This document shows, one piece after another, positions 5,087-11,891 of a stretch of 64,000 bases of DNA. Location: IMG/VR virus record IMGVR_UViG_3300027967_000093. One strand, written 5' to 3'. A program made the position numbers and the translations under genes. Positions within the stretch are counted from its first letter, which is position 1. The number at the start of each line of letters is the position of its first letter. The notes beneath the pieces were generated by a model. The model had not been told where the DNA came from. It did no database searches and saw only the letters and a program-made list of their open reading frames with translations. The DNA is from a virus.

Positions 5087-5761
5087 ATGTTTGAACATGT
5101 TCCGGTCGAATTGACCGAGATGGAAGCAGTGACCACCGATAGTGGCCGCAAATACAAAACCCCCGAAGGTGTCAACCTTCCCTCTATCACTACAGTCCTT
5201 TCGATTCTGTCACGTGACAGTATTGCCAAGTGGCGTAAACGTGTAGGTGAGGAAGAGGCGAATCGTGTCTCTTATCGTGCATCTACTCGTGGTACCTCGG
5301 TTCACGAAATCTGTGAGAAGTATGTTAACAATGACCCCAACTTCAAAGAGGGTTACACACCTGACATTATTGGTTCTTTCCTTGATTTGAAACCAATACT
5401 TGATGAACGTTTGACTAAGGTCTTCGCACAAGAAGCCCCACTATACTCCAATCATTTGGGTGTTGCGGGTCGTGTGGATTGCGTGGGTATCTTTGATGGT
5501 AAACCGTCAATCATCGATTACAAAACTTCGATGAAACCTAAACGTCTTGACTGGATTAAGAACTACTTCATGCAAGAAGCTGCGTATGCAATCATGTGGG
5601 AAGAACGTACTGGTCAACCTATCACTCAGTTGGTTACCATAATCTCGGTTGATAACAATGAACCTCAAGTGTTTATCGAACATCGAGACAACTGGGTACG
5701 ACCCCTAATCGAAACTATTGCACAATATAATGAGGAAAATTCTACTTCCCTTTTTGTATAA
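5087..5761 (+). CDS. PD-(D/E)xK exonuclease (Cas4-like, conserved in T4-like phages)
   Basis: PSITTVL, RGTSVHEICE, AGRVDCV, IIDYKTS, YFMQEAAYA; ATG 5087 more likely than TTG 5048. Confidence 0.8.
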   Translation: MFEHVPVELTEMEAVTTDSGRKYKTPEGVNLPSITTVLSILSRDSIAKWRKRVGEEEANRVSYRASTRGTSVHEICEKYVNNDPNFKEGYTPDIIGSFLDLKPILDERLTKVFAQEAPLYSNHLGVAGRVDCVGIFDGKPSIIDYKTSMKPKRLDWIKNYFMQEAAYAIMWEERTGQPITQLVTIISVDNNEPQVFIEHRDNWVRPLIETIAQYNEENSTSLFV

Positions 5762-5764
5762 ATA
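5757..5764 (+). promoter_or_regulatory. T4-type late promoter
   Basis: TATAAATA before ORF 5804. Confidence 0.7.
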
Positions 5765-7106: not shown

Positions 7107-8441
7107 ATGGCACAAATTAAAGGCGCGCAGGGAAAGTTTCATGAAACTACTGCACTAGTAAATAGACACGGCACGTTGGTAGATAGTGGCAATCCTTTAC
7201 CTATTGTTGGCACTACAGAAAACCCTTGGGGCAAACAAGTTCTTCTAGTCGATGACGATACTGTTCAACACACTTCTAAGAATAGACGTAAAGTTTCTAC
7301 ATATGAAGTGACAGACTTCAACACATTTACATACGGAAAAGACGTAGATATTTGGGACGAACTCGTTGTTGGTACAGGTTCTTCTACCCATGATCCGTAT
7401 CTCGGTATGGTTGAATTAGAGGTTGGTTCGGATTCTGGAGATTCGATCATTCGACAAACCGCACGTATCCAGAGATATTTACCAGGCCGTGCTAATGAAG
7501 TTTCTATGTCTGTAATTTTTGGATCTCAGACATCGGGTATTCGTAAAAGATTCGGTGTATTCGATGATGACAAAGGTGCATACTTTGAAGATGATGGTGA
7601 TGACCTTTATTGTGTATTGAGAAGAGATACTGCCGGTGGAGAAGACGAAGAACGTTATTCTCGTGCAAATTGGTCTGTTGATAAGTTGGATGGTACTGGG
7701 CCGAGTGGTATCACATTAGATCTTTCTAAAATTCAATTAATGGTAATTGAGTACGAGTGGTATGGTGCAGGACAGGTTGAGTGGAAGTTTGTTATTGACA
7801 ACAATGCAATTTCTATTCATAAGATAGATCACGCTAATACTCATGACCACACTTGGGCATCACGTGGTGCACTTCCAGTTCGCATAGAATTGACAAATGT
7901 TGATGGTATTGCGGGAACTCACTCCGTGTATCAGGGTTCTCATTCATTCCTTACTGAAGGAACAACTACTCTTCTCGGAAGACAAAAAAGTATTTCTTCG
8001 GCAATTACAGGAAAATCCCTCACATCTGCTAATACTTTTTATCCTATTGTTGCGATACGACTCAAGGCAGACGCACTAAACTCTGTCGTACTACCCGATG
8101 AATATTCTGGTGCTACATTAGATAACTCAAGTATGTTTATCAGAGCAATCGAAGATGCTACTGTTACTGGCGGCACTTGGGTTTCATACGACTCTGATTC
8201 TCCTATTGAATATAATATCACCGCTACTGGTTATACCAACGGTAATATTTTAGGAACAACATATGTTTCTAGTGGTAACATGGGACAGAAAGTTGAATTT
8301 CCTGAAAGGTCGATTACTCAACTTGCCAGAAAGACCACAACAACACTAGGTGATACTACAACCACGTTCCTGATTGCTGTTGCTTCAACGGGTTCAAACA
8401 AGACGGGTTGGGCAGATCTGGGTTGGATTGAGGTAAGATAA
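7107..8441 (+). CDS. putative virion structural protein (beta-rich)
   Basis: RYLPGR, RFGVFDDDKGAYFE, IEYEWYGAGQV, LPVRIE; T/S/G-rich. Confidence 0.55.
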   Translation: MAQIKGAQGKFHETTALVNRHGTLVDSGNPLPIVGTTENPWGKQVLLVDDDTVQHTSKNRRKVSTYEVTDFNTFTYGKDVDIWDELVVGTGSSTHDPYLGMVELEVGSDSGDSIIRQTARIQRYLPGRANEVSMSVIFGSQTSGIRKRFGVFDDDKGAYFEDDGDDLYCVLRRDTAGGEDEERYSRANWSVDKLDGTGPSGITLDLSKIQLMVIEYEWYGAGQVEWKFVIDNNAISIHKIDHANTHDHTWASRGALPVRIELTNVDGIAGTHSVYQGSHSFLTEGTTTLLGRQKSISSAITGKSLTSANTFYPIVAIRLKADALNSVVLPDEYSGATLDNSSMFIRAIEDATVTGGTWVSYDSDSPIEYNITATGYTNGNILGTTYVSSGNMGQKVEFPERSITQLARKTTTTLGDTTTTFLIAVASTGSNKTGWADLGWIEVR

Positions 8442-9661
8442 TGAAATTTAAAGAATTTATCACAGAACAAAAGAACACCCACATGACGCATATCGAAGAT
8501 AAAGTCATTTACGGGGGTGTGAATGGTACACGGCAAGCAATCCTTGCACTGCGAGAATTGCGTGATATGTTGTCCGGTAAACACAGCGGAAAAGTCTCGG
8601 TAAAATGGGATGGTGCGCCTGCAATCTTCTGTGGACAAGACCCACGGGACGGTGAGTTCTTTGTTGCGAAGAAAGGTATATTTAATAAGAACCCAAAGGT
8701 ATATAAAACTAATGCAGAAATTGAAGAAGACACTTCGGGAGACCTTGCGGACAAACTTAAAGACGCTCTTAAATATCTACCAAGTCTTGGTATTAAAGGT
8801 GTTATTCAGGGCGACTTTCTTTTTGGTCGAGGTGATGTACAGACTAAGACAATCGATGGACAAAAATATGTAACGTTCCATCCTAATACAATTGTGTATG
8901 CAGTACCGGAAGAACAGGCGCAATCAGTTAAGGCTGCAAAAATCGGTATAGTGTGGCACACTACATATACTGGTAGTTCTTTTGAGACGATGAAGGCATC
9001 CTATGGTGTTGATGTATCGAAACTTAAAAAGTCTACTACTGTATGGTCACAAGATGCAATGCTTCGTGATTTATCTAACGCAACAATGACAACTAAAGAA
9101 ACGGAGAAAGTGAATGAATATCTTTCGCAAGCTGGTAAACTTTTTAACCAAATTAGTGGGACGACCCTCAGAACCCTCGAAGGAAACCCCACCCTCGCCC
9201 AAACCATCGAAACCTACGGAAACACCAAAGTCCGCAAAGGCGAAGTCATCGGCAACTCGAAAACCCACGTCAAAGGTCTCATCAAATACATCAACGACAA
9301 GTACCAAAAAGAAATCGACAAGCGCAAAACCGAAAAGGGTAAGCAAGCCCAAGAAACCAAACGCGAAGAAATAATGTCGTTCTTTTCACCTGCAAATCGA
9401 GCATCTCTAGAAAAGATGTTCGAATTGCAAAAAATGATAGTTCTTGCAAAGTTAACTCTTATAAATAAACTTAACAGTTTAAAAGATATTGACACTTTTG
9501 TTAAAACCAAAACTGGTTATAAAGTAACTGGTGAAGAAGGTTATGTGGCAATAGATAAACTTGGTGGTGATGCGGTGAAACTTGTTGACCGTATGGAATT
9601 CTCATACAACAACTTTTCACCCGATATATTAAAAGGCTGGGACACACCTAGTCGTACTTAA
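8441..9661 (+). CDS. DUF6267-like protein with ATP-dependent ligase motifs; putative internal head protein
   Basis: MKFKEFITEQ; HMTHIED; KWDG (motif I), IQGDF (III), EGYV (IV), VKLV (V). Confidence 0.7.
   Translation: MKFKEFITEQKNTHMTHIEDKVIYGGVNGTRQAILALRELRDMLSGKHSGKVSVKWDGAPAIFCGQDPRDGEFFVAKKGIFNKNPKVYKTNAEIEEDTSGDLADKLKDALKYLPSLGIKGVIQGDFLFGRGDVQTKTIDGQKYVTFHPNTIVYAVPEEQAQSVKAAKIGIVWHTTYTGSSFETMKASYGVDVSKLKKSTTVWSQDAMLRDLSNATMTTKETEKVNEYLSQAGKLFNQISGTTLRTLEGNPTLAQTIETYGNTKVRKGEVIGNSKTHVKGLIKYINDKYQKEIDKRKTEKGKQAQETKREEIMSFFSPANRASLEKMFELQKMIVLAKLTLINKLNSLKDIDTFVKTKTGYKVTGEEGYVAIDKLGGDAVKLVDRMEFSYNNFSPDILKGWDTPSRT
9114..9374 (+). CDS. nested (+1 frame) small protein: amphipathic N-terminus plus P/S/T/K-rich basic tail
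   Basis: GGAG 9103-9106, ATG 9114; only 2 of 71 host-gene codons (9161-9373) end in T versus about 40% in a flanking sample. Confidence 0.7.
   Translation: MNIFRKLVNFLTKLVGRPSEPSKETPPSPKPSKPTETPKSAKAKSSATRKPTSKVSSNTSTTSTKKKSTSAKPKRVSKPKKPNAKK
9460..9467 (+). promoter_or_regulatory. internal T4-type late promoter
   Basis: TATAAATA about 220 nt upstream of ORF 9686. Confidence 0.5.
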
Positions 9662-9685: not shown

Positions 9686-10081
9686 GTGGCAAAGAAACCG
9701 CTTAGATTCAAAGAATTCGACTCCGTTGATACCAACGAAGAAGTCGCGCAAGAGGCATTGACCGTACAACAACGTATGGCGAAGTCTCGTCAGATGAAGA
9801 AACTTGCACCCAAAATCGCAATCGGCCGCAAACGCGCTGCCCGTAAGATGGCGAATATGGATACCATCAAAAAACGTGCACGTAAAGCCGCACGTAATAT
9901 TATCCTAAAGAAACTAACTAAAGATATCCCCAAAGACGAGTTGTCAATGTCTCGCAGACAGGACATTGAGAAAAGACTAGATAAGATGAAACCTAAGATT
10001 GACAAACTCGCACAGAAAATGTTACCGAAGGTTCGTAAGAAAGAACTTGAACGTAAAAAAGGGGGCCCAAGTGCCGATTAA
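9686..10081 (+). CDS. conserved basic protein, putative internal head/DNA-binding protein
   Basis: GTG with GAGG RBS; LRFKEF...QEALTVQQRMAKSRQMKK; very K/R-rich. Confidence 0.7.
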   Translation: MAKKPLRFKEFDSVDTNEEVAQEALTVQQRMAKSRQMKKLAPKIAIGRKRAARKMANMDTIKKRARKAARNIILKKLTKDIPKDELSMSRRQDIEKRLDKMKPKIDKLAQKMLPKVRKKELERKKGGPSAD

Positions 10082-11891
10082 GAATTTTTCCCAATACCTC
10101 ATCGAAGAGGAAAGGGAGGTTTATTTTACCTTTGGTAGAATGAACCCACCTACTATTGGGCATGGGAAAGTGATGGATACTCTTGCAGCGAAGTCTGGTA
10201 AGAGTGATTATAAAGTATATCTGTCACACTCACAGAATCCCAAGAAAGACCCACTGTCCTATGTGGAGAAAGTGAAACACACTCGTAAAATGTTTCCAAA
10301 ACATGCACGTCAAGTAATGTTAGATAAGGATGTCAAGTCCGTATTTGATATTGCAGTAAAACTATATGACCAAGGTTATACTAAGATTAATATGGTTGTT
10401 GGTGCAGACCGTATACGTGAGTTCGATGTATTGTTGAATAAGTACAACGGTACAAAGGCACGTCATGGTTTCTACAATTTCAAAAAGATTAATGTCATAT
10501 CTGCGGGTGAACGTGACCCCGATGCAACTGGTGTCGAGGGTATGTCCGCGTCTAAACAACGTGCGAATGCAGAGAAAAATGATTTTGTTACCTTTGCACA
10601 GGGTGTACCAAAAGGTATGTCCAACAAAGATACACGTGCACTATTCAATGATGTACGTAAAGGTATGGGACTCAAGGAAGAAAGAGAATTTAAAAACCAC
10701 ATCGAACTAGAAACTGTTTCTGAAACAAGAGAACAGTACGTGTCAGGTGAACTGTACAATGTAGGTGATTTGGTAGTAATCAAAGAAAGTGACGAGGTTG
10801 GTACTGTATTAGTCCTTGGTGCTAACTATGTAATTGTAGAAACGGCCAACGGTAAGTTACGTAAATGGTTAGATGCTGTAGACCTACTAGAGAAACAAGA
10901 CTCAGATATCAAAGATCGTGAAGGTACACAACCTGCACGTTATCACTCTGGACTGAAGAAGTCCACCAAAGTTGCACGTGATGCACACTTCAAGAAACAC
11001 GGTAAGAAAGCAGACGATGATGCATCTGCATACAAACCTGCTCCTGGCGATGCAACTGCACAGACCAAACCTTCTAAGTACACCAAACAGTTCAAAGATA
11101 TGTACGAAGAAGTCTCTCAGAAACAACTCAATGACCTTGAGAAGTTTGGTGACAGACTCCTTGCAAAGTATGATATCGATATAGAATTCACACGTCACTT
11201 CGCTGACCGTATGAACGACTCTCGTAACAAACCTGAGATTAAGGTCACTGAACTACAGAAGTTGTTCAAAAAGATTGCAAAAGAAAAAGGTCGGAACATC
11301 AAAAAACATGGTGATTCAGAGGCAGTCCTGAAGGATATGCAGTCTGACCTTAACTTACCTGTAGTAATCAACTACAAGAACGGTGAGTTTGAAGTTATTA
11401 ACAAAACAATAATGCGCAAGAAAGACTTTAAGACTACTAGTCCTGAAGTTAAGTACGAGTCTGTCGAACAGATTGACGAGTTACTTGGAAGATATATCGA
11501 TAATCTCGAAGGCCCATTGGCGGGTCGTTTCTGGGATAAGATTATTAACGCAGATGTGTACAAGACAGTTATCGCAACCTTCAGAAAAGAACTTCAAAAA
11601 AGTTCTGCGGGTCAAAGAAACAAATTAGGATTTATGTCAGATATCGCACGTAGGTATGGCGCGAATGGTCGTAGTGCGGCAGAGATATTCCACAAGTTAA
11701 TCAAGAAAGGTGTTATTCCCGAGAAGGAAGCGTTCTATCCAAACTTCAGTATGAAGGAAGAACTTGATCCGGTTAAGACTGCACGTGATGCAATCGAACG
11801 TGAGAAAGAGTCTGATAAGAAGAAACACGATTCTATTCTAGACCGTGCAAGACTTGCACGTGCAAAACAAAAGAATAGGAAAACTAAATGA
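10071..11891 (+). CDS. cytidylyltransferase-like (HIGH superfamily) nucleotidyltransferase, multidomain polyprotein
   Basis: GTG 10071 (MPIKNFSQYLIEEE); FTFGRMNPPTIGH, VVGADR, SAGERDPD, MSASKQR; followed by several extra modules. Confidence 0.8.
   Translation: MPIKNFSQYLIEEEREVYFTFGRMNPPTIGHGKVMDTLAAKSGKSDYKVYLSHSQNPKKDPLSYVEKVKHTRKMFPKHARQVMLDKDVKSVFDIAVKLYDQGYTKINMVVGADRIREFDVLLNKYNGTKARHGFYNFKKINVISAGERDPDATGVEGMSASKQRANAEKNDFVTFAQGVPKGMSNKDTRALFNDVRKGMGLKEEREFKNHIELETVSETREQYVSGELYNVGDLVVIKESDEVGTVLVLGANYVIVETANGKLRKWLDAVDLLEKQDSDIKDREGTQPARYHSGLKKSTKVARDAHFKKHGKKADDDASAYKPAPGDATAQTKPSKYTKQFKDMYEEVSQKQLNDLEKFGDRLLAKYDIDIEFTRHFADRMNDSRNKPEIKVTELQKLFKKIAKEKGRNIKKHGDSEAVLKDMQSDLNLPVVINYKNGEFEVINKTIMRKKDFKTTSPEVKYESVEQIDELLGRYIDNLEGPLAGRFWDKIINADVYKTVIATFRKELQKSSAGQRNKLGFMSDIARRYGANGRSAAEIFHKLIKKGVIPEKEAFYPNFSMKEELDPVKTARDAIEREKESDKKKHDSILDRARLARAKQKNRKTK

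Follow-up and report, generated by a model that had tools for sequence, protein, structure and literature searches.

A probable overprinted gene for a polycationic, disordered protein within the DUF6267 ligase-like gene of uncultured marine T4-like phages

We analysed a window of 64,000 nucleotides from an uncultured marine T4-like myovirus (IMG/VR record IMGVR_UViG_3300027967_000093), with a focus on an open reading frame (ORF) at positions 9114-9374. This ORF lies in the +1 frame of a larger gene, hereafter the host gene, which encodes a DUF6267 ligase-like protein. Our results indicate that it is very probably a real protein-coding gene overprinted on the host gene. This interpretation had been put forward in a sequence-only reading of the window, and it is supported by our comparison across 83 homologous phage loci. 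At the level of sequence, the aligned homologs show that selection maintains the start site, the open +1 frame, and the class of residues encoded by the nested frame, by keeping C or A at the second position of its codons.

The nested ORF is contained entirely within the host gene (8441-9661) and runs from the ATG at 9114-9116 to the TAA at 9372-9374. This ATG is the first possible start, because an in-frame TGA immediately precedes it (9111-9113). The coordinates, the length of 86 residues, and the GGAG located 7 nucleotides before the ATG all match those given in the sequence-only reading. The same reading had set two codons ending in T among the 71 host codons of 9161-9373 against 15 of 36 in an upstream sample from 8879, and our recount gave exactly these values: host third positions are C39 A24 G6 T2 in the former and T15 A11 G8 C2 in the latter. 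The lowest-T stretch of 213 nucleotides in the whole window starts at 9158, with 8.5% of T against a mean of 27.4% (standard deviation 3.9). When all ORFs of at least 150 residues were cut into 3030 segments of 50 codons, the segment at 9161-9310 was the extreme, with frequencies of T and C at third codon positions (T3 and C3) of 0.02 and 0.64; the mean T3 is 0.35 (standard deviation 0.08) and the next lowest value outside the host gene is 0.10. The protein encoded by the nested frame is equally singular. The best 50-residue segment of its tail consists to 92% of S, T, P, A, or K, which is unique across the six frames of the window, and no other P/S/T/K-rich ORF occurs there in any frame.

The comparison was based on 80 IMG/VR loci with host proteins 71-85% identical to that of the window (the best 80 of about 600 relatives), to which we added seven GenBank phage regions; the host genes were aligned codon by codon and 83 homologous loci were assessed. 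A +1 ORF of 55-102 residues, starting at the aligned ATG or at an ATG 2-3 codons upstream, was found in 51 of the 83 homologs. These 51 form 21 clusters differing at 40% or more of the fourfold-degenerate sites outside the overlap, and their synonymous sites are therefore largely independent. We labelled the kinds of homologs A to D. Group A has nested ORFs of 80-102 residues with a P/S/T/K-rich tail, and C at the third position of 32-42 of the 71 host codons in the overlap. Group B is a single clade with a nested ORF of 87 residues and an intermediate bias (24-27 host codons ending in C), with no stop in frame +1 and 4-7 stops in frame +2. Group C has nested ORFs of 67-83 residues with an unbiased tail, and group D (31 distinct sequences) lacks the nested ORF; host third positions are not enriched in C in either of them.

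Judging from codon choice in the alignment, the nested start codon and its GGAG are conserved beyond the needs of the host protein. The aligned start corresponds to the host codon AAT followed by G in every ORF that uses it, when, in the rest of the gene, 44% of the Asn codons are AAC. The GGAG of ORF-bearing homologs is made of ACG GAG, and elsewhere in the gene ACG represents 9% of the Thr codons and GAG 24% of the Glu codons. One clade (loci L008, L024, L028, and L029) has ACA GGA G instead, which retains AGGAG and changes the host residue from Glu to Gly. In three other loci (L021, L019, and L048) the aligned ATG was lost and replaced by an ATG 2-3 codons upstream, behind a purine-rich stretch. 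The N-terminus of the nested protein differs in these three loci (in L021 the ORF spans 1576-1881), yet it is still amphipathic (MMLIKFLQKL...). The homologs lacking the ORF have no GGAG at the site, even if two of them have a partial GAGG (GAG GAA), and they often have AAC or a codon for another residue at the position of the start. A stop codon of the nested frame (TGA or TAA) directly precedes the ATG in most homologs. The region of the start folds weakly, and the GGAG is unpaired in the minimum-energy fold.

The sequence-only reading had named an alignment of homologs as the way to check its claim. In our alignment the +1 ATG, the GGAG, and the open frame are kept, and host synonymous variation is lowered only across the overlap. 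In group A, fourfold-degenerate sites differ in 0.35 of the pairwise comparisons inside the overlap and in 0.54 outside, whereas the divergence of the host residues is higher inside (0.35, against 0.22 outside). In group D, the same sites differ equally inside and outside the overlap (0.64 and 0.63). Sliding windows along the group A genes show that variability drops from around 0.5 to 0.10-0.3, with the lowest values (0.10-0.14) at host codons 270-300, and the 87-codon window with the lowest variability begins at host codons 215-219, i.e., at the GGAG and ATG. The values of group D stay at 0.5-0.67 without any dip. Over the segment encoding the N-terminal helix of the nested protein, host residues diverge by 0.18-0.23 in the presence of the ORF and by 0.44 in its absence. 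This lower host divergence in ORF-bearing lineages indicates a double constraint on the segment. A second, smaller dip in synonymous variability was observed at 8921-9010 (host codons ~160-190), only in the lineages of the P/S/T/K type, whose values are 0.32-0.38 when homologs without the ORF have 0.56-0.61. At the DNA level, the sequence encoding the host motif AKIGIVWHTTY hardly varies there, and no ORF is conserved in an alternative frame.

The strongest single result is that the codon bias tracks the position of the nested stop, since a nucleotide-level signal has no reason to move with it. When the stop is at host codons 320-323, the codons 311-321 have a T3 of 0.02 and a C3 of 0.56. When it is at host codons 310-311, these same codons have a T3 of 0.32 and a C3 of 0.16. 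Both sets of sequences are normal past codon 323 and before the GGAG. Hence, the C-rich, T-poor bias extends 10-12 codons further where the nested stop is further downstream, which upholds, across lineages, the earlier remark that the bias in the window stops at the nested TAA. The pattern that the sequence-only reading had held to be incompatible with its claim, a bias in homologs lacking the ORF or its ribosome-binding site, was found in none of the 47 ORF-less homologs.

The distribution of stop codons was compared with synonymous recodings of the host protein that respect the gene's own codon usage, over host codons 224-311. These recodings predict 2.5-6.6 stops in frame +1, when none was observed in the ORFs spanning these codons and the shorter ORFs have only their own terminator(s). 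The depletion has P values of 0.001-0.05 in nearly all sequences tested, and ORF-less homologs have as many +1 stops as expected. In the lineages with a weak bias, even a shuffle with the codon usage of the region predicts 1.7-3.4 stops in frame +1, for none observed (P 0.002-0.06 for most). This region-conditioned depletion was found in groups C and B, and in loci L076 and L083, where frame +2 is not depleted.

These patterns can be accounted for by the following mechanism. The second position of nested codons is the third position of host codons. With C at this position the nested codons would encode S, P, T, or A, with A they would encode K, N, E, or Q, and T, which leads to hydrophobic residues, would be excluded. 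The C/A bias at host third positions would thus arise because the nested second position is held at C or A. Selection on the tail would then target the class of the residues and not the exact sequence. Since nested codons centred on C are fourfold degenerate, the host first position that follows is left unconstrained. This freedom should keep the conflict with the host protein small, and it fits the high divergence of host residues in the overlap. We propose that ribosomes would initiate internally at the GGAG-N7-ATG on the late transcript that carries the host gene, and that the resulting 86-residue product would be composed of a short N-terminal anchor helix and a polycationic disordered tail of 70 residues.

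The predicted structure of the product is in line with the architecture previously read from the sequence, an amphipathic N-terminal helix followed by a basic disordered tail. AlphaFold2, with an alignment of 36 nested proteins, gave a helix at residues 3-15 (predicted local distance difference test, pLDDT, of ~78) and coil after it. With a hydrophobic moment of 0.77, this helix is strongly amphipathic. In the window, the tail has a net charge of +18, with 30% of K and R, 60% of S, T, P, and A, and 3% of hydrophobic residues; the other tails of group A have net charges of +11 to +22. No part of the nested protein is better conserved than the helix, whose coding segment lies outside the T-poor stretch.

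The nested ORF is present only in the clade with at least 71% identity in the host protein. Among GenBank entries, the host gene is closest to that of phage C48C1 (Kyanoviridae, 72% protein identity), which lacks both the ORF and the bias. More remote relatives include Stenotrophomonas phage DLP6, Methylophilales phage Melnitz, pelagiphage HTVC008M, and hundreds of cyanophages, and the ORF is absent from the homologs of DLP6, Melnitz, HTVC008M, P-HM2, S-WAM1, and S-PM2. Its absence from these distant homologs indicates that the nested gene arose within the phage clade. The sequences also indicate that it was lost or truncated several times. Forms of the P/S/T/K type are found among the deepest branches of the host-gene tree, whose rooting is weak, which suggests that the P/S/T/K-rich form is old and was lost repeatedly. 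We found no free-standing paralog of the nested gene when four long IMG/VR contigs and phage C48C1 were searched; a single match was obtained, in the contig of L046, and it was the nested locus itself. No nested gene is annotated in any of the seven GenBank phage regions, and none of those phages bears the ORF. The nested protein is missing from every record examined, because gene callers discard embedded ORFs. It matches neither Pfam nor PHROGs. Our literature search revealed no mention of DUF6267, and no description of the nested gene among papers on overprinting or on overlapping genes of T4-like phages.

Several observations weigh against the existence of a nested gene. Frame +2 is likewise open in the biased stretch, over 61 codons, and a shuffle with the region's own codon usage predicts no +1 stop in the window. 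The open +1 frame of the window, and of the other strongly biased lineages, is thus not independent evidence, because the codon usage itself opens the frame, and the independent evidence must come from the homologs. There, the nested tails have an identity of 0.51, against 0.44 in codon shuffles, and control +1 frames from other parts of the gene exceed their shuffles equally. The ratio of divergence between nested first and third positions is also equal with and without the ORF. As far as these alignments go, the tail has no position-specific conservation beyond composition and shared ancestry. The tail of group C is neither biased nor synonymously constrained; this form may be decaying, or the helix alone may matter. 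The association between ORF and bias was also assessed by a paired phylogenetic test, which had ~2 informative pairs, too few for significance. At least 10 changes of ORF state, and five of bias state, were counted on the host-gene tree, from which the overlap columns had been excluded, and the number of the former implies that the nested gene is dispensable or often replaced. A search of 5.8 billion proteins with the nested ORF gave no homolog at E <=0.01. The product has therefore never been seen by anyone, as there is no called homolog in protein databases, although this is expected for embedded ORFs. Finally, any function is read from composition and predicted structure.

Some of these points would be expected if the A/C-rich, T-poor stretch were a nucleotide-level element, either an unstructured, C-over-G segment of the mRNA (for instance for Rho loading or with an enhancer-like role) or a signal in the DNA, with the +1 ORF as a by-product. 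The depletion of T opens both alternative frames, no +1 stop is expected under the region's codon usage, and the tail is conserved in composition only. The biased 213 nucleotides also fold weakly (-26.9 kcal/mol, z +0.43), with no sign of a structured element, and have a GC skew of -0.2 to -0.3. We nevertheless consider this explanation very improbable, because such an element should neither end at the +1 stop nor move with it between lineages. It also does not explain why the ATG and the GGAG were kept by means of rare codons, a change of host residue, and compensating upstream starts, why weak-bias lineages avoid stops in frame +1 and not in frame +2, nor why the most conserved part, encoding the helix, is outside the T-poor stretch. 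The conserved GGAG could be given another role, as is known from prfB and dnaX, where internal sequences resembling a Shine-Dalgarno promote frameshifting. A programmed +1 frameshift would fuse the N-terminal half of the nucleotidyltransferase-like host protein to the basic tail, and such a tail on a ligase-like domain would be functionally sensible. However, the +1 stop right before the ATG in most homologs makes a shift possible only at or after the ATG, where there is no slippery or rare-codon shift motif. Frameshifting needs neither an ATG conserved against codon preference nor its replacement by other ATGs, and the 7 nucleotides between GGAG and ATG are a typical spacing for initiation. 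We thus give frameshifting even less credence than a nucleotide-level element.

Just as implausible as a frameshift, in our opinion, is that the ORF is a non-functional accident, i.e., a recombination patch from a relative with another codon usage or an unselected, drifting proto-gene. The loss or truncation of the ORF, at least 10 times on the tree, and its absence, together with that of the bias, from the closest GenBank phage go in this direction. Yet, the ORF, its start, and the bias persist over ~21 lineages with at least 40% of synonymous-site difference outside the overlap, and the lowering of synonymous variability is restricted to the overlap and to the lineages bearing the ORF. The specific case of a patch from a high-GC donor was rejected: such a donor would raise both G3 and C3, as in DLP6, and the enrichment here concerns C and A without G. 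An overprinted gene thus remains, by a wide measure of probability, the reading that we retain for 9114-9374.

The product of the host gene itself matches Pfam DUF6267 over residues 12-393 (E 1.1e-106, 357.8 bits for a cut-off of 27), above the gathering score, and phrog_455 in PHROGs. The K-W-D-G motif is present and invariant, and the N-terminus is polar. The AlphaFold2 model has an alpha/beta core and a helical domain, and the overlap maps to the latter (residues ~218-312), in blocks with pLDDT mostly of 79-93 and one of 64. Structural comparisons gave faint signals of ligases: the top Foldseek match is T4 Rnl1, at an E of only 0.17, with weak ligase rows amid helical-bundle noise, and VIA-align with residues 50-208 gave a tRNA ligase at Z 5.4, under the noise level of that search. 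A PDB sequence search with the host protein gave no match. The coordinates of the features are collected in Table 1.

Table 1. Location of the nested ORF, its parts, and its genomic context in the window
Feature	Positions	Strand	Basis
Probable nested overprinted gene, 86 residues + TAA, frame +1 of the host gene	9114..9374	+	ORF and homolog comparison
Shine-Dalgarno-like GGAG, 7 nucleotides before the nested ATG, from host codons ACG GAG	9103..9106	+	sequence
Nested-frame TGA right before the ATG	9111..9113	+	open length equals ORF length
Segment encoding the predicted N-terminal amphipathic helix (residues 3-15), best-conserved nested part, consensus MNIFRKLVNxLTK	9120..9158	+	AlphaFold2, alignment
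Segment encoding the predicted polycationic P/S/T/A/K-rich disordered tail (residues 17-86), with C/A-biased host third positions	9162..9371	+	composition, AlphaFold2
Host gene, 406-residue DUF6267 protein with KxDG motif (putative ligase-like nucleotidyltransferase)	8441..9661	+	Pfam DUF6267
TATAAATA, T4-type late-promoter motif heading the co-directional gene block to which the host gene belongs	5757..5764	+	motif match

The genomic context suggests when the nested gene could be expressed. The motif TATAAATA occurs in 14 copies in the window, for 3.6 expected, at sites including 5757, 9460, 13650, 36411, and 10 others. Both frames would be transcribed late, from the putative late promoter at 5757. 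At 9460 the motif falls within the host gene, in its 3' part, and precedes the gene at 9686-10081. The gene directly upstream of the host gene (7107-8441) matches the 'virion structural protein' family phrog_1645 (E 2e-110), and the block may encode virion-associated proteins. A cytidylyltransferase gene, identified with PHROGs, lies downstream. The family phrog_455 has 764 positions, of which the first half corresponds to the DUF6267 gene (8441-9661) and the second half to the cytidylyltransferase gene (10071-11891), two genes downstream; the annotated homolog of cyanophage S-PM2 is correspondingly longer. Given these split halves and this longer homolog, the two parts appear to be fused in some phages. 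A mechanical 630-residue ORF starting at TTG 9999 (9999-11891) overlaps by 83 nucleotides the gene at 9686-10081, which encodes a basic protein of 131 residues.

The function of the nested protein can be proposed only tentatively, and the same holds for the membrane- or DNA-tethering role named in the sequence-only reading. The helix may serve as its anchor in a membrane or on a partner protein; the tail, which is histone-H1-like, may bind or condense a polyanion (DNA or RNA) late in infection. A serious alternative, somewhat less likely, in which the gene is equally real, is that the product is not a free binder of DNA or RNA but a membrane-active late protein (an accessory of lysis or exclusion) or a polycation internal to the capsid and loaded by its N-terminal helix. 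Embedded +1 genes of phages are often lysis genes, such as phiX174 E in D and Rz1 in Rz (PMC5295617), the helix is amphipathic and cationic, and the late-promoter motif precedes a block that includes a virion structural protein. Against these roles, the helix has only ~13 residues, the protein lacks transmembrane segments and, in the window, any Cys (a lipobox-like Cys near position 10 is found in few homologs only), and the nested alignment shows no conserved cleavage motif after the helix. A broader scenario, to which we give still less weight, is that the locus displays a natural series in the life of a gene that originated de novo within the gene of an enzyme of large double-stranded DNA phages. 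The start and the helix would be the same throughout, the tails would go from unbiased (67-83 residues) through intermediate to polycationic and H1-like (86-102 residues), and the stop would shift and take the bias along. Once mature, the product would be a phage-made polycation of the linker-histone kind that, late in infection and possibly in the capsid, compacts or neutralises DNA or RNA, acting in trans with the ligase-like/nucleotidyltransferase block in which its gene is embedded. If the product is indeed a polycation binding DNA or RNA, it would represent an unrecognised component in the late programme of widespread marine phages.

Two types of known proteins resemble the nested protein in its general traits. 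The C-terminal domain of linker histone H1, Chlamydia Hc1 and Hc2, and Pseudomonas AlgP are rich in K, S, T, P, and A, disordered, and strongly cationic, with S/T-P-K-type motifs. The likeness of the nested tail to these proteins is in composition only. There is no homology in Pfam or in the protein search, no globular winged-helix domain, and the only folded element is the 13-residue amphipathic helix. The internal proteins of T4 that have a capsid targeting sequence are small, basic, and late, with an N-terminal amphipathic leader. The nested helix differs from this leader in that it is not followed by a conserved (L/I)-x-E cleavage site.

As for gene organization, the closest parallel is the o-spanin Rz1 of phage lambda, a short proline-rich protein encoded wholly inside Rz, on the same strand, in the +1 frame, and with its own start (PMC5295617, PMC6139136). 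The nested protein shares all these traits: it is short, proline-rich, and encoded from its own start in the same-strand +1 frame of a larger phage gene. Yet Rz1 differs in being a lipoprotein, with signal sequence and lipobox Cys, whose membrane partner (the i-spanin) is the product of its host gene. The nested protein of the window lacks both the signal sequence and any Cys, and its tail is strongly basic. The host gene here encodes a soluble DUF6267 nucleotidyltransferase-like protein, and not an i-spanin with an N-terminal transmembrane domain. An embedded o-spanin of the Rz1 type was ruled out, given the lack of a lipobox and the wrong host gene.

The nested gene fits better what is known of overprinted viral proteins such as phiX174 E and K, which have a narrow range relative to the host gene, predicted disorder, richness in S, P, T, and A, and an older frame with lower synonymous variability (PMC8227390, PMC6195259, PMC3494269). 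The narrow range, the disorder, the residues with degenerate codons (S, P, T, and A), and the reduced synonymous variation of the host frame are all found here, and both the host gene family and the nested protein family are new for overprinting. The case is unusually clean for comparative analysis, because there are many lineages with and without the ORF, starts and stops that moved, and a bias that switches with the nested frame. This makes the locus a good test bed for methods detecting overlapping genes and for the study of how disordered proteins mature under the constraint of another frame. Unlike typical overprinted cases, it is found in a large double-stranded DNA phage (~150 kb judging by its relatives), for which genome compression is no obvious driver, and it suggests that large T4-like phages also create and keep genes by overprinting.

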